Of a DNA stretch of 64,000 bases, positions 14,382-46,344 are shown in pieces. Source of the stretch: a virus; IMG/VR virus record IMGVR_UViG_3300048838_001273, positions 14,902 to 78,901 of that record. The stretch is one strand, 5' to 3'. The stretch's first letter is position 1, and every line of letters starts with the position of its first letter. Position numbers and translations under genes: made by a program. The notes under the pieces were generated by a model that was given only the letters and a program-made list of their open reading frames with translations, made no database searches and was not told the DNA's origin.

Positions 14382-15707
14382 TTATATTAATGAACTTGTT
14401 TTTAATAATGTTAAATATCTATTTGTTGATGTTGCAGTACCAGTAGAAGTTCTCCATCTGATTTCAACGGTTGCTGTTGTTCCTAATGTTATTGGATAAC
14501 CAGCAATAACGTGAGTGGCTGCAACATTACCTTGTGTTGCACCTCTTCTAAACATCATTTCACTATTGGTTTGAGCAACACCACCAATATAAATTGTTGT
14601 ATAAATTTGAGCATTTGAACTACCATGCTGCACCCAATTACCATAATTAAGTAAATAAGTACCTGCTGGTACATTTGTTATTTGCATGCCGGTTTGTAAT
14701 GTATCTGTTGTGCTTGTTGTTGTTGCTGCACCAGCACTTGTAGCATTTAAAACTACCATTGGGTGTGTATCAACAAATTGTTTATCAACAAGTGTTCTGT
14801 CATCATAACTACCACTTAAATCTGTTGAATATTTCGCCAGTCCTGCCATATTGGTTGCGCCAGCAATACCCACACCACCAGCAACAGTTAAAGCACCTGT
14901 TGTCGGTGATACAGATGCTGTTGTCATTGGTACGATTGCTGTGGTGTCCGTTATTCTTAATTTTTCAACAGTATCAACAGTTCTTCTTCTGATTGAAAAT
15001 GCATCATTTGGTGTTGTATCTCCATCCAAATACATGTCCCACCAAGCATTACCTGCGGTAGTTGGTGTATTACCTGTGCCCCAAACGAATTCAACAGCAG
15101 GGTCTCCACCAACACCACCAACTCTCCAAACACGAATGACGGCATTTGTATCAATTAGCGATAATGTGCGAGGTACGTTCCCCGGTGTGTTTCCCCTTAA
15201 TCTATCTACATTAACTGAATCACCAAAAGCAACTTTACCAAGACCCAACAATCCCAAATTATCGTTCGAAACTAAACCAGTTAATCCGCTTGTATTGAAG
15301 TAAAGAATATTATCAACAGTATTAACAATAAAAACTGGATTAATGCCGTCAACTACATTAAAATTACCTGTCATAGTATCACCACTCCGATTAACCTTAG
15401 TGTTTTCTAAATTAATTATTGCTGTTGTTGTGTTTCCACTGAAATCAGTAAAAATATCATAAGTAACACTATCTTCAGATGTTGGTGGTGGCGAAATTTC
15501 CTTAACATATTCATTAACTGTTTGTTCTGTATTAAAAACAATAGTTCCACCACTCTCTCTATATAAATAAAGAGGTTGAATATCTGGAATAAAGAAATCG
15601 ATTAAAATCTCACCAGTATCTGGTGGCAAAGGAGCAAAACTATTATTGCTCCTTGCTACCAAAGTATTATTATATTCAGTATTATATAGAAAATATTCTA
15701 ACGCCAT
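14382..15707 (-). CDS. Tail fibre-like structural protein
   Basis: Thr/Gly-rich; KVNRSGDTMTG and TTGALTVAGGVGI fibre motifs; N-terminus paralogous to 15715..18876. Confidence 0.65.
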   Translation of the reverse strand: MALEYFLYNTEYNNTLVARSNNSFAPLPPDTGEILIDFFIPDIQPLYLYRESGGTIVFNTEQTVNEYVKEISPPPTSEDSVTYDIFTDFSGNTTTAIINLENTKVNRSGDTMTGNFNVVDGINPVFIVNTVDNILYFNTSGLTGLVSNDNLGLLGLGKVAFGDSVNVDRLRGNTPGNVPRTLSLIDTNAVIRVWRVGGVGGDPAVEFVWGTGNTPTTAGNAWWDMYLDGDTTPNDAFSIRRRTVDTVEKLRITDTTAIVPMTTASVSPTTGALTVAGGVGIAGATNMAGLAKYSTDLSGSYDDRTLVDKQFVDTHPMVVLNATSAGAATTTSTTDTLQTGMQITNVPAGTYLLNYGNWVQHGSSNAQIYTTIYIGGVAQTNSEMMFRRGATQGNVAATHVIAGYPITLGTTATVEIRWRTSTGTATSTNRYLTLLKTSSLI

Positions 15708-40344: not shown

Positions 40345-40376
40345 AAAAAACCCCGAAAGATTTTTCTTCCGGGGTT
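40345..40376 (-). terminator. Intrinsic terminator closing the vWA-ARPP unit
   Basis: AACCCCGGAAGA-AAAA-TCTTTCGGGGTT followed by a T-tract. Confidence 0.7.
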
Positions 40377-40394: not shown

Positions 40395-41492
40395 TTAAAG
40401 ACTAAATCTTTCTTGTTTTCTTGCTTTCTTCCTGAGTTCATTTACCTCACGAAGTGCATTTGGGTCGAACCTGTCACGTTTAACAACACTTACTAAGTGG
40501 TTAAATTCGTTTTCAGTAATTACCTGACCAACGTACCCTTCTGTTTTAAGAACAAAAGACTTTGGTGCAGTTCTTGAAGTTGACTGTCCTTCAGTATCTG
40601 CAGTTGCATTGAATGTAAGTTCAAGAAGTTCCTGAATCTTTTCATGCACGCTTGCGGTCATGGTCTGCTTTACTTTCTTCAAAGATTTTTCAAGCAAATC
40701 AATGATATTATCCTGATGACTTTTCTTCATTTCATTGTATGTTTCGGTGAAAACATTCATTGAAGTCCTATTCTTTAACTCGCTGATAATTGCAAGTGCA
40801 CCGTAACAATCACGAATCATCAAATCCCAAACCTGTTCAGCGTATGTGAATGAAGGAAATTTATCGACTGCGACAATTTCACCATCAATCAACACAACAA
40901 TACCGATAAGATTTTTTGGACGTTCGAAGTGTGCAATGAACTGTTCGAGTTTCTTGTCATACTTATTAAAGTAAACGTCCAAGTAATTACCGGAATTACA
41001 CTGAGTATCCTGTCCCAACTTCTGAATAGCAGGATAGATGTTACCGTGACCTGATGTTTGACCAACGGCATCGAATAACATTTCACGCATGGTTACTGGA
41101 ATCATACGGAATTCCTGAGTACCACGGAAGTGTCCAGTCTGTCCACCCTGTACACAACCAGCATCATGATATGTAGTTTGTGCTTTAGGTTCAACATAAC
41201 CTGCCTTCACCATACCGTGGTTCTGAGCACTCTGTTTTGTCATAACAGCCATCTGAGCAGGAAGAATAACTTCCTTATTCTCTTTATTGGTGAAACTGAT
41301 TTGACCATATGAACTGTTACCAGCAGTCAATGAAGTCAAAGGATTAGCAAAACGCTCGTCCAATGAGAATTCTTTGTCAGTTGTTAAACACACGATTTGC
41401 ATGTTCATAATTGACTGAACGATAATGTTACCTTCACTATCCTTGACAGGACGGCAACCTTTAAGTAATTCTGTGAAATCTCTTGTATTCAT
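40395..41492 (-). CDS. ARPP-like (DUF6569-like) domain protein
   Basis: Pattern Y..I.F.N....VILP......AQNH........CVQ..Q.G and GIVVLIDGEIVAVDKFPS..Y...W..LI..Y recalls ARPP-type domains; recognised by eye only. Confidence 0.55.
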   Translation of the reverse strand: MNTRDFTELLKGCRPVKDSEGNIIVQSIMNMQIVCLTTDKEFSLDERFANPLTSLTAGNSSYGQISFTNKENKEVILPAQMAVMTKQSAQNHGMVKAGYVEPKAQTTYHDAGCVQGGQTGHFRGTQEFRMIPVTMREMLFDAVGQTSGHGNIYPAIQKLGQDTQCNSGNYLDVYFNKYDKKLEQFIAHFERPKNLIGIVVLIDGEIVAVDKFPSFTYAEQVWDLMIRDCYGALAIISELKNRTSMNVFTETYNEMKKSHQDNIIDLLEKSLKKVKQTMTASVHEKIQELLELTFNATADTEGQSTSRTAPKSFVLKTEGYVGQVITENEFNHLVSVVKRDRFDPNALREVNELRKKARKQERFSL

Positions 41493-41503
41493 GTTTTTAA
41501 TTT

Positions 41504-43138
41504 TTAAGCGTTAACACTAATTTTATTTGACCTCTTAACAGGTGCAGCTTCTAAAGCACGAACCTGATTTTCAAGCCACCTTGGGGTATCGATTTCCAAT
41601 AACCTTGCGTTAATCTGTGGCTGAAGTGCAACTGGATTATTGATTGCCATTGTGACAACACCCGAACCCAATTTACGAACATTAGCACCCATTTCAGCAC
41701 TGGTGATTGGTGAAATCTGGAAAATCGGAATGCTCCTACCAGATTCTGCTTGCCAGATTGAAATAACTTCGTTGGTTAGACCATCGTAAGCATTTTCATA
41801 ACCATCAGTTAAGATGAAAATCGCATCATAAGGACGTGCAGTATTTTCTGATTTAAGCAATTCAATGAATGAACTTGCCAAGTCAGTAATTTCGTCACGA
41901 GTCTTAACAAATGTTGCAACATCTGCTGACCTACCCAATACCTTTGCAGTGAAATCAGCAATTGCCCTTGGAGTGTTCTTTGACTCAGCCTTATGACCAG
42001 TCATTGAAGCACTGTCATCGACAACAATACCAATACTCTGGTAGAAGAAACCTGCAATCTTTTTCTTTTCAGCAAGTTTACTAATTGCAACATTCAATTC
42101 AGGTGTGAAACCATTTTCATAACCTGTCTTGTAAAGTGCCATGAAGTCAGTTGCTTTTTCAAGTTCAACATGCTTTTCAACACCCAACTTCGCAGTACTT
42201 TTGGTCTGACGAACCTGCTGGTTAACCGAAGTTACCTTAACATTCTTACGAACCAAAGCCTTTGTTGCTTCTCTCTGAACAGCAGTTGCCCACATACTGT
42301 GGTACTGTGGGTGAGTTACAGAAGAAATTAAACCGAGCAATACTTCTTCCGGTACATTCTGAACATTGGTGATGTCAGTTTTTGCCTTCTGATATTCATT
42401 TAAAATACTGAATTCACTGTAGTCAATACCAGTATCTCTTTTGAAGATGAATAACAATAACTTAAATGCACGAGTTGTGTCACCGTTAAAGTATTTCAAA
42501 AGCAAATCATTTGCAATACCCATTTCCTTTTCAGTTCCAATAAGAAGGTTGTTACCATAAGTAACGTACTTCTGTGCAATTGAAAGCAGAATTGAAGTTC
42601 TTTTTGTTCCATAGGTGTGCTTCAAAATATTTGCAAGTTTGTTACGGTACTTCAATGAATAGAATTCAAGGTTTGACTGACCCCAAATGAAGCCGAGTAC
42701 AATTTTCCTTGACCTTTCGTTGTTAATCCTTGATTTTTTCAAATCAATGAAAAGACGTAACGCATAGGTAATACCATTATCAGAACCTGCAAGGTTATTC
42801 AACGCACTAAGAACTGCCTTATCAGATAATCCATTATCATACCAGTCAATTGGATTAACTATATTACAAGCACCACCCCTATAGGTTTCTTTGAATTCGT
42901 TAAGCAATACCTCAGACACAAATCTTCCGGTAGCACCTTTTTGGCTTGCAATAATTAATGGAAGTTCCTTTGAAAGTTTATACATACTCCTAATCTGAGT
43001 CTGTAATGCCTTCATCTGTTCATCCTTTTTGTGGTAGTAAGTTGCTGAACTTTTGCTACCTGATGCAATTGTTAAACCTTCAATTAATGACTGCTTAACG
43101 CTTGTAAGCATCTTCTGTGTTAATACCAATTTTTCCAT
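41504..43138 (-). CDS. Helical N-terminal + vWA-domain protein (Ro60/TROVE-like architecture)
   Basis: C-terminal vWA MIDAS elements IVVDDSASM, T-D-L and FILTDGYEN; long basic, likely helical N-terminal region (RINNERSR, LKYRNKL); 544 aa, similar in length to Ro60. Confidence 0.6.
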   Translation of the reverse strand: MEKLVLTQKMLTSVKQSLIEGLTIASGSKSSATYYHKKDEQMKALQTQIRSMYKLSKELPLIIASQKGATGRFVSEVLLNEFKETYRGGACNIVNPIDWYDNGLSDKAVLSALNNLAGSDNGITYALRLFIDLKKSRINNERSRKIVLGFIWGQSNLEFYSLKYRNKLANILKHTYGTKRTSILLSIAQKYVTYGNNLLIGTEKEMGIANDLLLKYFNGDTTRAFKLLLFIFKRDTGIDYSEFSILNEYQKAKTDITNVQNVPEEVLLGLISSVTHPQYHSMWATAVQREATKALVRKNVKVTSVNQQVRQTKSTAKLGVEKHVELEKATDFMALYKTGYENGFTPELNVAISKLAEKKKIAGFFYQSIGIVVDDSASMTGHKAESKNTPRAIADFTAKVLGRSADVATFVKTRDEITDLASSFIELLKSENTARPYDAIFILTDGYENAYDGLTNEVISIWQAESGRSIPIFQISPITSAEMGANVRKLGSGVVTMAINNPVALQPQINARLLEIDTPRWLENQVRALEAAPVKRSNKISVNA

Positions 43139-43167
43139 AATCTATATGTGTTTAAAATTTCGTTCTG

Positions 43168-43198
43168 CAATAATAACAATTATAATTCAATTTACAAA
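43168..43198 (-). promoter_or_regulatory. Possible Bacteroidota-type promoter for the vWA-ARPP pair
   Basis: TTTG-N19-TATTATTG (one mismatch to TAnnTTTG). Confidence 0.4.
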
Positions 43199-43259
43199 AA
43201 AAATCAAAAAAAAAATGGGTGAGATGAAACATTTCTGCTCCAAGTCCCCACCCATTTTT
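43196..43259 (-). terminator. Terminator closing the RNA cluster
   Basis: AAAAATGGGTGGGG..GGAGCA-GAAA-TGTTTC..TCTCACCCATTTTTTTTTT. Confidence 0.6.
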
Positions 43260-43292
43260 CATTTTGGAATACTCTTCTTCTAAAAAAAAAGA

Positions 43293-43383
43293 GAAGAAGT
43301 TCGGTTGTATTTTGGTAAGTTTGTCCCGCCTCTCATGAGCGGGATTACATTTTTCAATTTACTGTAAACACAGCCAGTTCTTC
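43293..43383 (-). ncRNA. Structured repeat RNA unit 4 (Y-RNA-like stem with internal hairpin)
   Basis: GAAGAA-CT-GGCTGTGTTT-ACAGTAAA...AAATACAACC-GAAC-TTCTTC; internal TCCCGC/GCGGGA hairpin; followed by T9. Confidence 0.65.
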
Positions 43384-43593
43384 CACCAAATTTCTTGTTT
43401 TTGAAAAACTCAGTACTTCTACTTAGAAAACCATTCTTAACCTCTCGTGCGTTTAAAACGCAAATTCAAATGTTAGGTGGTATGCCCCTTTTTTGTTAAA
43501 AAATTCTGATACCAACAGCCAAAAACTTTAAGCAGTGGGGTTTGCTTAATATTAAATAAATCTTATTTGCTAACCGTCACCACTTAATAACTT

Positions 43594-43733
43594 AGGGAAC
43601 ATTTTAAAAGTATTTGTTGTTTTTAATGCAAGTTTAACCGACTTGTGACTTAACCGCTTGTCTAATTTTCAATTTTGGCTGAAAATGAAGGATTCGAACC
43701 TCCGTATTACTGTAAACACTTTTCGTTTTCCCT
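43594..43733 (-). ncRNA. Structured repeat RNA unit 3 with a circularly permuted tRNA-Asn-like body
   Basis: Motif stem AAAAGTGTTT/AAATACTTTT encloses T-arm GGAGG-TTCGAAT-CCTTC, ATTTTCA-G-CCA, linker, TGAAAAT, D-arm and anticodon arm CAAGT-CGGTTAA-ACTTG. Confidence 0.75.
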
Positions 43734-43799
43734 TTGTACTTTAAAGAACGTTACCCCGAAGTTTGTGTTGCCACAGGGACAACGGGGAATTATAATTTT

Positions 43800-43875
43800 A
43801 GAAGAAATTCGTTAGTCTTGTGTTGTAAGTGTCTGATTTACCGTCAAATTTACTGTAAAAACTATCAGTTCTTCT
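43800..43875 (-). ncRNA. Structured repeat RNA unit 2 with an anticodon-like hairpin
   Basis: AGAAGAA-CT-GATAGTTTTT-ACAGTAAA...AAGACTAAC-GAAT-TTCTTCT; internal TTTGA-CGGTAAA-TCAGA. Confidence 0.65.
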
Positions 43876-43880
43876 TTTTG

Positions 43881-43953
43881 TAGCGGGAGAGGGATTCGAA
43901 CCCCCGACCTCTTGGTTATGAGCCAAGCGAGATACCACTTCTACCATCCCGCA
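43881..43953 (-). tRNA. tRNA-Met(CAT), probably initiator-like
   Basis: Complete cloverleaf TGCGGGA..CTTGG-CTCATAA-CCAAG..GGGGG-TTCGAAT-CCCTC-TCCCGCT-A; 1:72 mismatch; CCA not encoded. Confidence 0.88.
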
Positions 43954-43991
43954 ATATAAAGGGTTTTTGTGAAAAACCCTTAAAAACTTTG

Positions 43992-44127
43992 TGGGGAGAA
44001 CAGGACTCGAACCTGTAATCTATTGATTTCAACTCAATTGCTTTACCTTTACTGAAAACACTACGAGTTCTCTCTGTGAAGAGAGCAGTGAGATAGTATT
44101 TCTTGTTTTTGTTTTTGCTATCTCCCC
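43992..44127 (-). ncRNA. Structured repeat RNA unit 1: tRNA-like molecule with a ~69-nt motif insertion in the D-loop
   Basis: Acceptor GGGGAGA/TCTCCCC-A, anticodon arm ATTGA-GTTGAAA-TCAAT, T-arm ACAGG-TTCGAGT-CCTGT; the insertion carries the repeat motif with its halves swapped. Confidence 0.72.
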
Positions 44128-44173
44128 ATGTAAAAAAATTCATTTCTTAAAAGAACGTTGTCCAAAGACTCTG

Positions 44174-44204
44174 CAAATATAAAACACCTTTTTTTAATAT
44201 GCAA
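44174..44204 (-). promoter_or_regulatory. Bacteroidota-type sigma-A promoter of the RNA cluster
   Basis: TTG-N20-TATATTTG, followed ~15 nt downstream by a boxA-like AACGTTCTTT. Confidence 0.72.
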
Positions 44205-44298
44205 GTGTTTTTGAAAAAAAATAAAAATATTTTTATAGACCTCTGGAAAAATAAATACTTGATGTTTTACAAAAAGTTACATTTTTTTATAAAAATTT

Positions 44299-46344
44299 TC
44301 ACTCTTTTTTTATAACATTCTGTCTTTTACGTAATTGCGCCAACTTTTCTTTTATAAATTTTTCATTATCTTGTGGTGCATCCGGGTCAATTAACCTGTC
44401 ATTAACATCTATTTCAGTATTAATATTTTTTTGAACTGGTGGTAAAATTTCTTTTCTTTCTTGAATTTCGGGTAGTGTTTCAACTGATTCTTGCACAATA
44501 TTAGGTACGTCTTTTAACTCGACTTCCTTTTCAATGACATTAGTATAAAAGGTTTCACCAGTCCAACTATCCATTATAAAATCAGTATCTGTTGTGTTTA
44601 TTCCCTCATTTACTCCCTCACTTACTCCCTCATTTACACCATCACTTACACCATCAGGTTCGTCAGTAGCTTCTTCATCTATTTCTAATATACTTCCAGT
44701 ACTCGGCACTACAATATCTTCTACAGTCTCAGGCACATTATTTCCAGTTTTACCGGACATCAAATCTTCTAAACTATCTTTATACGATTGAATTTTACCG
44801 GGTTTTACAGCATCATTTGGAGTATCATTTACGGCATCATCTTTCAGTTTTCCCTCAATTATATTTCCATAATACTCACTAACAGGTATATGAATAGCAG
44901 TACCTGTCTTATTTGTCTTATCTTCCAATTTGTCAATATCTGGAGTATCGTGGTGCTTGATGTTTTTACTCATCTTGCTATACTTATACCTGTCATCTTC
45001 GATTTTGATTTCCATTGTATCATTATTGAAGATACAGTTCGTAAAAGTCTGACCGTCTTGTGCAAACCTTGCTTTAATAATTCTGATATTAGCAAGATGT
45101 GCTTCTTTTTGTTCAGGAGTTTTTGCCACACTCATGAAAAAGTGTGCTTTTTGTACTCTCTTTATATTACCACCAGTTTGATGAACCTCAACGAATTCAG
45201 AATCGAAACCACTACGGTTTGACTGAATTGCAGTCCATGCAGGAATATTCAAATCTCCGGCAAGTGCTTCGAATGATTTAACAATTACAAGTTCAGCTTC
45301 ATTTCTATCTGCAGTTTTTTTATGAGATTCCAAACAATCCAGATAATCCAAAACAATTTCATCAAAAACATATCCATATTTTTTCTGATGCCTTGTAATC
45401 CAGTTACGAATATCCATCATAGTGGTGTTCTCCTGACTAAATTTCTTAATCATGAGTTTACCTCTACCCCTTTTTCTTAATTCATCGGCTTTTTCATGTG
45501 AAAGTTTAGTTACTCTCTCATTTTCATCATCTTCATTTAACTGGCTCAACTTAGATTTTGTCCAAATTGTAAAGTGCTTTCTCTGAATCTGTTCTACAGT
45601 ATCTTCGAAGACGATTTGAAGTACGTTTTTACCAACTTCAAGTCCGGTATTTGCTATTTTTGTTAGTAATGTTGTTTTACCAACACCCGATGGTGTTAAT
45701 ATTACACCAATTTCTCCCTTACCTAACCCACCACCAGTAAGTACGTCAATAACTTCAACACCAGTGGGTATTGTTTCTCTGAATTCTTTTCTTAATGCCT
45801 TTTCAATGTTATCTGTAACTTCAGTACCATAATCTTCTTCTTCACCAATATGTGAGATTTTCAAGAATTTTTCTTCAATATAACCAAGAGTGTGTTTATG
45901 TTTTATTTCACCACTTTTGGTTTTAGCTAAAATATATTCACCTATCTTCCTGTATTCCTGTTGTTTAATGAAATTATTGGTTGCCTTTTGTACAACAATA
46001 CCGTCATAAAGCATTTCTTTATTTAAAACCCTTTCATTCCATAATTCAACACGTTTAATTACAGCAAATAAGGATTCTTCCTCGATTATGTTGTTCGGAG
46101 TTTTATAAGAATTAATTGCAAGATGTATACTTTTATTTTGAAGATTTGGTACTTTTTCATACTCTTTATAATACTCCAAAATGATGAGAAACAGCCTTTT
46201 TAAATAAGGGTCATCAAAGTATTCTACTTCTAAATTTGGTATTGTTTTTTCTGCAAACTCCGGTTCTACAAGCAATTGCCACATTAGGCTTTGTTGAAAA
46301 TCAGGACCGAGATATGCAGAAAATGTATTTGTACTATCACTCAT
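44299..46344 (-). CDS. DnaB-like replicative helicase (T4 gp41-like) with acidic C-terminal extension
   Basis: TIPTG..GGLGKGE..TPSGVGKTT (Walker A), VLDYLD (Walker B), WTAIQSNR, IKARF. Confidence 0.88.
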   Translation of the reverse strand: MSDSTNTFSAYLGPDFQQSLMWQLLVEPEFAEKTIPNLEVEYFDDPYLKRLFLIILEYYKEYEKVPNLQNKSIHLAINSYKTPNNIIEEESLFAVIKRVELWNERVLNKEMLYDGIVVQKATNNFIKQQEYRKIGEYILAKTKSGEIKHKHTLGYIEEKFLKISHIGEEEDYGTEVTDNIEKALRKEFRETIPTGVEVIDVLTGGGLGKGEIGVILTPSGVGKTTLLTKIANTGLEVGKNVLQIVFEDTVEQIQRKHFTIWTKSKLSQLNEDDENERVTKLSHEKADELRKRGRGKLMIKKFSQENTTMMDIRNWITRHQKKYGYVFDEIVLDYLDCLESHKKTADRNEAELVIVKSFEALAGDLNIPAWTAIQSNRSGFDSEFVEVHQTGGNIKRVQKAHFFMSVAKTPEQKEAHLANIRIIKARFAQDGQTFTNCIFNNDTMEIKIEDDRYKYSKMSKNIKHHDTPDIDKLEDKTNKTGTAIHIPVSEYYGNIIEGKLKDDAVNDTPNDAVKPGKIQSYKDSLEDLMSGKTGNNVPETVEDIVVPSTGSILEIDEEATDEPDGVSDGVNEGVSEGVNEGINTTDTDFIMDSWTGETFYTNVIEKEVELKDVPNIVQESVETLPEIQERKEILPPVQKNINTEIDVNDRLIDPDAPQDNEKFIKEKLAQLRKRQNVIKKE

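Follow-up and report, generated by a model that had tools for sequence, protein, structure and literature searches.

A divergent Ro60-like protein encoded beside ARPP-1 and an array of handle-bearing, tRNA-like RNAs in a huge uncultured phage

Ro60, a ring protein of RNA surveillance, is conserved and is an autoantigen in humans, but little is yet understood about the forms found in bacteria and phages. Chen et al. 2014 (PMC4201824) described Ro60 genes next to tRNA-mimicking Y RNAs in over 250 bacteria and in 22 phages, the Ro60 of Thermus phage phiLo has been described with its RNAs Yrl1 and Yrl2 (PMC12135203; PDB 9L5Y), and TROVE proteins have been noted in jumbo phages (PMC7824862). This study concerns a locus in a stretch of 64,000 nucleotides (nt), hereafter the window, which covers positions 14,902 to 78,901 of the IMG/VR virus record IMGVR_UViG_3300048838_001273. 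In this locus an array of small RNAs that share a two-part stem, called the handle here, lies upstream of the genes for a 544-amino-acid (aa) protein and a 365-aa protein. An earlier note, made from the letters of the DNA, had proposed that these parts form a new ribonucleoprotein system. The data reported here suggest that the 544-aa protein is a strongly diverged Ro60, and that the locus probably encodes a diverged particle of the Ro60/Y-RNA type, in which the ring of that protein binds the handle RNAs and ARPP-1, the product of the second gene, docks on its vWA domain.

The 544-aa protein had no Pfam match, even at E values up to 10, and no match in NCBIfam, PHROG or PADLOC. No names are attached to the members of its protein cluster, and among GenBank phages there was a single distant homologue, which is unannotated (LR756500.1). 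An exhaustive HMMER search collected 306 relatives, mostly of 510-550 aa, and ten homologues compared with the Pfam TROVE family (PF05731) gave weak matches to the vWA domain only. The AlphaFold2 model of the protein, built on an alignment of 102 relatives, has a predicted local distance difference test score (pLDDT) of 92.8 and a predicted template modelling score of 0.91. When the model was compared with the PDB using Foldseek, as the earlier note had suggested, the top 11 matches were all Ro60, end to end and with E values down to 2.7e-7, and they came from Xenopus, human, Deinococcus (Rsr) and Thermus phage phiLo. Structural alignment with Xenopus Ro (1yvr) in VIA-align gave Z 18.0 and a root-mean-square deviation of 4.3 A over 408 aligned residues; below the Ro60 rows the best structural matches were vWA domains, with Z of 8-10 (under 10). 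Because the vWA domain could carry a full-length match, the ring was searched alone: residues 1-362 were folded by themselves (pLDDT 80.8) and compared, without Foldseek, with 48,161 representative chains. The first three ranks were the three Ro60 representatives, at Z 11.9 (279 residues aligned), 10.8 (265) and 10.3 (251), and the fourth rank had Z 7.3 over 90 residues.

In the model a helical ring of the TROVE type (residues 1 to about 360) is followed by a vWA domain with the MIDAS (an adhesion site that depends on a metal ion) D374-x-S376-x-S378, and across 102 homologues D374, S376, S378 and D445 vary little or not at all. Judged from its predicted structure, the 544-aa protein is Ro60 by fold and architecture, and by sequence it is not detectable as a TROVE member. 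The divergent Ro-like protein that the earlier note had suspected is thus borne out as a Ro60-type ring with a vWA domain that sequence methods do not see.

The 365-aa protein is ARPP-1 (PF20208, E 1.6e-15, 57.6 bits against a cut-off of 27), and Y62, Q90, H92, C113 and E190 are invariant in 72 ARPP-1 sequences. The two genes lie side by side in almost all loci recovered, at identities as low as about 25%. Of 80 phage loci, 78 have ARPP-1 after the Ro-like gene, the other two being contigs that end inside the Ro-like gene, and so do 55 of 62 loci from genomes of Planctomycetota, Myxococcota, Bacteroidota and others, where identity is 24-32%. The partnership that had been proposed for an ARPP-like gene is therefore reflected in a near-universal neighbour, and also in a predicted binding partner. 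Complex prediction with the Ro-like protein and ARPP-1 gave a score of 0.63, compared with 0.00 for the best of three controls; among 80 solved complexes 58 scored at least as high, as did 2 among 110 mismatched pairs, though these benchmark counts are only rough because the analysis used its own alignments. The contacts agreed between runs to at least 86%, and the pLDDT of the partner was at least 85. vWA domains usually hold their ligand through an invariant acidic residue that faces the MIDAS, as in integrin I domains. The predicted interface joins the MIDAS face (residues 376-378 and 445-452) to ARPP-1 residues 16-29, 184-193 (which include E190) and 244-271. This prediction supports, but does not show, that ARPP-1 binds the MIDAS face of the vWA domain.

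The RNA array, the 544-aa open reading frame (ORF) and the 365-aa ORF all lie on the minus strand and follow each other 5' to 3' in that order. The array begins with a possible promoter region, followed by unit A, a hairpin, a tRNA-Met, unit C, a conserved hairpin, unit B, a further small RNA, unit D and two terminators consisting of a hairpin and a U run; then come the two ORFs and a final terminator. The features are as follows, with positions counted in the window and with the alignments (A2, A3 and so on) described below.

44146-44156, minus strand: GTTCTTTWAAR box, about 20 nt upstream of unit A (motif scan)
43992-44127, minus strand: unit A, a tRNA-like RNA with the handle in place of the D arm (partial match to Rfam tRNA, fold, alignment A6)
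43880-43953, minus strand: standard tRNA-Met (CAU) (ARAGORN; Rfam tRNA, 52.3 bits, full length)
43798-43876, minus strand: unit C, handle with a 5-bp hairpin (fold, alignment A2)
43753-43787, minus strand: nested hairpin CCCCGUUGUCCCUGUGGCAACACAAACUUCGGGG, 3' of unit C (near-identical sequence in related loci)
43739-43749, minus strand: second copy of the GTTCTTTWAAR box, 6 nt upstream of unit B (motif scan)
43594-43733, minus strand: unit B, a circularly permuted tRNA on the handle (fold, alignment A5)
43395-43530, minus strand: further conserved small RNA between units B and D (alignments A9 and A10)
43290-43385, minus strand: unit D, handle with a G+C-rich hairpin, last of the array (fold, alignment A3)
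43207-43297, minus strand: two hairpins with U runs that end the RNA array (read from the sequence; not listed by a simple terminator scan)
41504-43138, minus strand: gene of the 544-aa divergent Ro60-like protein (AlphaFold2 model, structure searches)
40395-41492, minus strand: gene of the 365-aa ARPP-1 (PF20208 match)
40349-40376, minus strand: intrinsic terminator that closes the two-gene operon (12-bp stem and T run)

The four units of the earlier note were recovered at the same positions, on the minus strand and with a common core and a two-part stem; the genuine tRNA-Met that it had seen among them was found by both ARAGORN and Rfam, and the two genes and terminator that it had placed next are present as two ORFs on the same strand closed by the terminator at 40349-40376. 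The common core GTKTTTWCAGTAA occurs in four exact copies in the 64 kilobases (kb), all on the minus strand and within about 700 nt, where 1.3 matches would be expected by chance with one mismatch allowed. In the fold of every unit the 5' and 3' halves are paired, with P1 as the outer stem, P2 as the inner stem and a short P1.5. The handle reads as a purine-rich P1, an unpaired AAC, the short P1.5 and a P2 ending in GUKUUU, followed by a WCAGUAA junction that faces an A/C-rich strand.

Covariation was assessed as counts of compensatory pairs in alignments with related phages, and these counts are not corrected for kinship. For type C (26 sequences, A2) P1, P1.5 and P2 are preserved with compensatory changes; the outermost P1 pair is AU or UA, and one P2 pair is GC in 13 sequences and AU in 12. 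In type D (19 sequences, A3) 7 of 25 pairs are compensatory, with exchanges of UA/GC and UA/AU in the handle and many more in the cargo hairpin. Double changes were seen in 15 of the 36 pairs of type B (15 sequences, A5), including the acceptor, T, D and anticodon stems, and 15 of 30 pairs are compensatory in type A (23 sequences, A6). A control in which stem halves were paired with their own or with foreign partners did not discriminate between the two, because the stems are A/U-rich and partly invariant, and it was superseded by the alignment-based counts and by a stricter handle descriptor with controls. The compensatory changes that had been read from the four units alone were also seen in the alignments of all four types, and covariation shows the RNA structures. 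Two other readings of the two-part motif were rejected: Rfam gave no match to known self-cleaving ribozymes (hairpin, hammerhead, twister, pistol, hatchet) at E values up to 10, and the sequences do not fit an integron attC-like site, the covariation being RNA-like.

The units differ in what the handle carries. Unit A has a 7-bp acceptor stem, an anticodon arm (loop GUUGAAA) and a T arm, with the handle replacing the D arm and the P1 end of the handle capped by a hairpin; its partial match to the Rfam tRNA model spans 44000-44053 (29.4 bits, model positions 9-63). In a helix that could form instead, tRNA positions 4-10 (GAGAUAG) of unit A pair with the handle junction (CUAUCUC), that is, columns 4-10 with 33-39 of A6. 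This helix is 96% paired in 23 sequences and nearly invariant, with one compensatory change, and it would compete with the acceptor stem and P2. Unit B, which lies about 450 nt upstream of the Ro-like gene on the same strand, is a tRNA in permuted order: the 5' handle is followed by the T arm, the acceptor 3' strand, G-CCA, a short linker, the acceptor 5' strand, the D arm, a complete anticodon arm (loop CGGUUAA) and the 3' handle. An N-CCA after the acceptor 3' strand is encoded in this unit and in most of its type B relatives, although read from the sequence it is only suggestive of a tRNA-type CCA end or processing. Units C and D carry a hairpin and no tRNA body: in unit C a 5-bp hairpin with the anticodon-like loop CGGUAAA (GUA with G33), and in unit D a G+C-rich hairpin CCCGC...GCGGG. 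ARAGORN found the tRNA-Met as the only canonical cloverleaf, and unit B stayed below the Rfam tRNA threshold. Also, related phages have type E units in which a whole tRNA body is joined to the handle through its acceptor stem, and in a distant phage and in Myxococcota the permuted tRNA is opened between the D and anticodon arms. Thus there are three or four different sites on the cloverleaf at which the one handle is joined.

In close relatives the tRNA bodies of the cargoes are nearly constant and the anticodon varies. The loops of type E units include UCU, GUC, UAA, CAA, UUC, CGU, UGA, UCA, UUA, CGC, CCU and UAU, and one and the same element in Pirellulaceae has the anticodon CUU, AUG, UUU or UAG. 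Across 70 loops from four unit types, U33 is absent from all 20 that have G34-U35 (the GUN type of Tyr, Asn, His and Asp tRNAs), which carry G, A or C at that position, and is present in 41 of the 50 others (Fisher p = 6e-11, not corrected for relatedness). The GUN-type loops of the window are those of units B and C, and units of related loci (L010-L082) were included. U33 is required for the U-turn of the anticodon and hence for decoding, and decoding by the GUN-type loops is therefore unlikely. Additionally, bacterial tRNA-guanine transglycosylase recognises U33-G34-U35, and colicin E5 cleaves at G34-U35. From their sequences, the GUN-type loops look selected to escape or trap an enzyme of that tRNA family.

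The handle is linked to the gene pair well beyond the window, as the earlier note would have predicted. Its core motif lies upstream of the Ro-like gene, on the strand of the gene, in about 70 of 80 related phage loci, most of which are close relatives (57-79% identity). In five complete relatives of 330-365 kb, genuine handles were found only in a block of 1-2 kb beside the Ro-like gene, and the other pattern matches were chance-like and as frequent as those of reversed-pattern controls. In two relatives that were checked, with 36 and 55 tRNA matches, almost all of these matches fall in arrays that lie over 90 kb away from the Ro locus, and no handle was found in those arrays, which argues against a general signal for pre-tRNA processing. 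Three complete relatives also have 2-4 genes for Rnl2-type RNA ligases (PF09414), some of them inside large tRNA arrays.

More distant loci were searched with a descriptor of the handle within 600 nt upstream of the gene (RRRAC, 9-16 nt, [ACU]CAG, and a complementary P2' and P1' downstream). It was found in 30 of 59 distant loci, compared with 1 for the opposite strand, 2 for shuffled sequences and 2 within the ORF; a strict sequence pattern of the phage handle gave few bacterial copies. The bacterial gene pairs (L091-L141) are located inside same-strand arrays of closely packed tRNAs, in which as many as about 38 T arms lie within 9 kb, and small HNH endonuclease genes are present in 9 of the bacterial loci. 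There, the tRNA-like element nearest the gene lies within a long stem of the same layout as the phage handle, for example ...GAGGAC-ua-GCACGUCAUU-ACAG-tRNA body... in Pirellulaceae and GGGGAAC...UUCAG in Myxococcota. Some genomes, and even some single tRNA arrays, contain a canonical TROVE (PF05731) gene as well as the Ro-like/ARPP-1 pair, and in Minicystis rosea and at four other loci the two lie a few kb apart. The Ro-like protein therefore represents a separate paralogous family and not a fast-evolving orthologue.

The GTTCTTTWAAR box has 3 matches in the window against 0.46 expected, 2 of the 3 precede units, and the box is also found before units in related loci; a role as promoter of the units or as signal for their processing is possible. 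A Bacteroidota-type TAnnTTTG box lies upstream of unit A, but with 87 matches in the window and 105 expected this motif shows no enrichment. The second of the two hairpins that end the array is GGGUGGGG...CUCACCC followed by U10. The 3' trailer of the tRNA-Met passes directly into unit C, and in the tRNA itself U1 and U72, at the top of the acceptor stem, are mismatched and the CCA is not encoded. The hairpin CCCCGUUGUCCCUGUGGCAACACAAACUUCGGGG occurs in nearly the same sequence 3' of type C units in five other loci. The small RNA at 43395-43530 is without an exact handle core and has the invariant blocks CCUAACAUUUGA and GGUUAAGAAUGGUUUU and its own terminator-like hairpin; 9 of its 17 pairs are compensatory (A10), with a stem that changes from UGGUAU/AUACCA to UGACAU/AUGUCA, and no Rfam family matched it at E values up to 10 over 43100-44350 or at the gathering score in the whole window. 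Upstream, the array is bordered by a gene for a DnaB-like helicase (Pfam), and the 385-aa ORF that adjoins ARPP-1 downstream had no Pfam match. The record is 78.9 kb long with a completeness of 22% by CheckV, and complete phage genomes of 330-365 kb are its close relatives; the source phage is huge and uncultured, and the window is a fragment of its genome. The public sequencing runs listed with this sequence were DNA runs in which it had a small share, and none was an RNA run.

By analogy with Ro60 and Y RNAs, and from the co-occurrence of the parts, the particle that we propose would work as follows. We infer that the small RNAs are transcribed and processed and that the ring binds the handle common to four, possibly five, of them. 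The handle would serve as a universal adaptor, which presents a tRNA body through its D loop in unit A, a permuted tRNA through its variable-loop position in unit B, and a bare anticodon-like hairpin in units C and D. ARPP-1, with its invariant set of Cys, His and Gln and its presumed enzymatic activity, would dock on the MIDAS face of the vWA domain, so that the particle would hold an enzyme beside the displayed tRNA mimics. Its most likely purpose would concern factors by which the anticodon loops of tRNAs are recognised: the particle would act on them or interfere with them, whether as a bait or decoy for nucleases or modification enzymes or in surveillance or repair of the tRNA pool.

Several observations weigh against this proposal. 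Only co-occurrence ties the ring to the handle, and close synteny among related phages is weak evidence. The handle descriptor overlooks half of the distant loci. No sequence method linked the ring to TROVE: PDB searches with the 544-aa sequence and with its profile did not return Ro60, and hhalign against four canonical TROVE proteins aligned the vWA part alone (73.6%). Also, Z scores of 10-12 for a helical repeat domain alone, which here come from a predicted model, are not decisive in themselves. The RNAs are not matched by Y RNA or YrlA models and are without the GNCGAAN0-1G motif. Finally, some type E cargoes look fully usable as tRNAs, so that the handle could serve maturation.

A more specific version of the same idea, which we regard as doubtful, is a programmable tRNA-guarding particle made of the ring, ARPP-1 and the handle RNAs, in which the handle would allow the phage, or a bacterial tRNA array, to exchange anticodon-loop baits quickly, and the baits would capture or neutralise enzymes that attack or modify particular tRNAs. 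The targets would be, for example, nucleases or transglycosylases specific for the GUN (Tyr/Asn/His/Asp) family, and ARPP-1 would supply the catalysis, by disarming the captured factor or by undoing ribose-linked damage on tRNA. The loss of U33 in every GUN-type loop would then mark decoys that cannot be cleaved or modified.

It is unlikely that the handle is instead a maturation signal of interrupted, permuted or extended tRNA genes, to be removed or nicked, with the Ro-like protein at most a chaperone or a quality-control factor. The acceptor stem, anticodon arm and T arm retained by unit A are what such a gene would have, and so are the type E units, which are whole tRNA bodies with normal U33/R37 loops. 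The N-CCA encoded in unit B of most relatives also fits, and the YrlA of Mycobacterium smegmatis, which is cleaved by RNase P and then receives CCA (PMC4201824), can be counted on the same side. However, units C and D have no tRNA body to mature, removal of the handle from unit A would leave no 4-bp D stem as read from the sequence, and the 20 of 20 GUN-type loops lack the U33 needed for decoding. The tRNA arrays of two complete relatives do without the handle, searches for RtcB in the record and in three complete relatives gave nothing, and the genes for Rnl2-type ligases lie away from the locus.

An improbable alternative is that the particle works like the canonical machine of Ro60, Y RNA and PNPase, in which the RNAs tether the ring to a host exoribonuclease that degrades structured RNA and ARPP-1 has an unrelated role. 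Deinococcus Rsr and the Thermus phage Ro60 do form PNPase complexes (PMC4201824, PMC12135203), but the universal coupling to ARPP-1 and the predicted interface at the MIDAS face argue that ARPP-1 is the effector here, and the variable anticodon loops on constant RNA bodies point to partners directed at anticodons. Least probable of all, the parts would be mere neighbours in a phage tRNA region that form no complex, the motif being a promoter, terminator or recombination feature of the DNA: most phage loci are close enough kin for their order to be inherited, and tRNA arrays attract mobile genes such as the HNH endonucleases of the 9 bacterial loci, but the compensatory changes indicate an RNA structure and not a DNA signal, and the motif is strand-specific, lies upstream of pairs that share only 24-32% identity across phyla, and is absent from the rest of five complete genomes.

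The Ro60-like protein belongs to a hidden branch of the family that is unseen by Pfam, NCBIfam, PHROGs and PADLOC and is found, with ARPP-1 as its partner, in huge phages and in several bacterial phyla, the bacterial members usually inside tRNA arrays. A conserved handle that shows tRNA bodies at different points of the cloverleaf is an unusual natural case of circular permutation of RNA. The locus also offers leads on the function of ARPP-1, on the reason for tRNA arrays, and on how phages may protect or manipulate the tRNA pool. In the literature covered on tRNA arrays with TROVE, Ro60 or vWA proteins and on permuted phage tRNAs, which did not extend to Burroughs & Aravind 2016 (NAR, RNA repair systems), no description of such a locus was found.

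Circularly permuted tRNA genes occur in Cyanidioschyzon merolae and other algae, and unit B resembles them in that the tRNA's 3' half precedes its 5' half in the encoded order, the halves being joined through the acceptor end. It differs in that no bulge-helix-bulge motif and no splicing endonuclease or ligase is evident here, in that its termini pair into a conserved stem like a protein handle, and in the G33 loops, which argue against decoding. For the second gene, the closest described setting is that of the conflict systems with ADP-ribosylglycohydrolase (ARG), from which ARPP-1 was defined and predicted to be an enzyme on ribose-containing substrates (Iyer et al. 2022, PMC9503650). The domain is the same, with the conserved Cys and Gln that had suggested an enzyme, but the partners listed there are ARG, a rhodanese-phosphatase, HIRAN, WYL and a deacetylase, and the text of PMC9503650 does not mention a Ro60- or TROVE-like partner; here the constant neighbour is the Ro-like gene, and neither ARG nor rhodanese-phosphatase was among the neighbours tested.

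Among phages, phiLo provides the nearest likeness, with a phage-encoded Ro60 and Y-like RNAs upstream of its gene, and phiLo Ro60 aligned with the model at Z 15.2 over the full length and Z 10.3 over the ring. However, phiLo Ro60 was found by sequence homology, its Yrl RNAs carry the CGAA motif, and neither an ARPP-1 partner nor tRNA-body cargo has been reported for it. The closest systems overall are those of Rsr with YrlA/YrlB or Yrn1 (Salmonella rsr-yrlBA-rtcBA, M. smegmatis, Deinococcus radiodurans and mycobacteriophages). As in these, a ring protein is encoded beside several small RNAs on the same strand, and the 5' and 3' ends of each RNA pair into a stem with an internal bulge. The likeness is greatest for YrlA, since unit B has the T arm, acceptor hairpin and D arm in the same permuted order and a CCA at the acceptor end. 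In contrast to Rsr, the present protein is not seen by the TROVE hidden Markov model, its partner is ARPP-1 and not RtcB/RtcA or PNPase, and the bacterial copies of the pair lie inside large tRNA arrays. The cargoes include complete anticodon arms and use three or four attachment points on the cloverleaf, which YrlA does not. The stem also differs, as the earlier note had judged by eye: its motif is RRARAAC...GUKUUUWCAGUAA instead of GNCGAAN0-1G, GNCGAA was absent from both strands of the RNA array, and the Rfam Y RNA and YrlA models gave no match at E values up to 10 over 43100-44350 and none at the gathering score in the whole window. The earlier proposal of a new ribonucleoprotein system holds for those of its parts that could be computed, and not for its claim of a new kind, since phage Ro60 with tRNA-mimicking, Y-like RNAs is already known (PMC4201824, PMC12135203). 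The locus is a new branch of the Ro60/Y-RNA kind, closest to Rsr with YrlA, and not a new kind of system.

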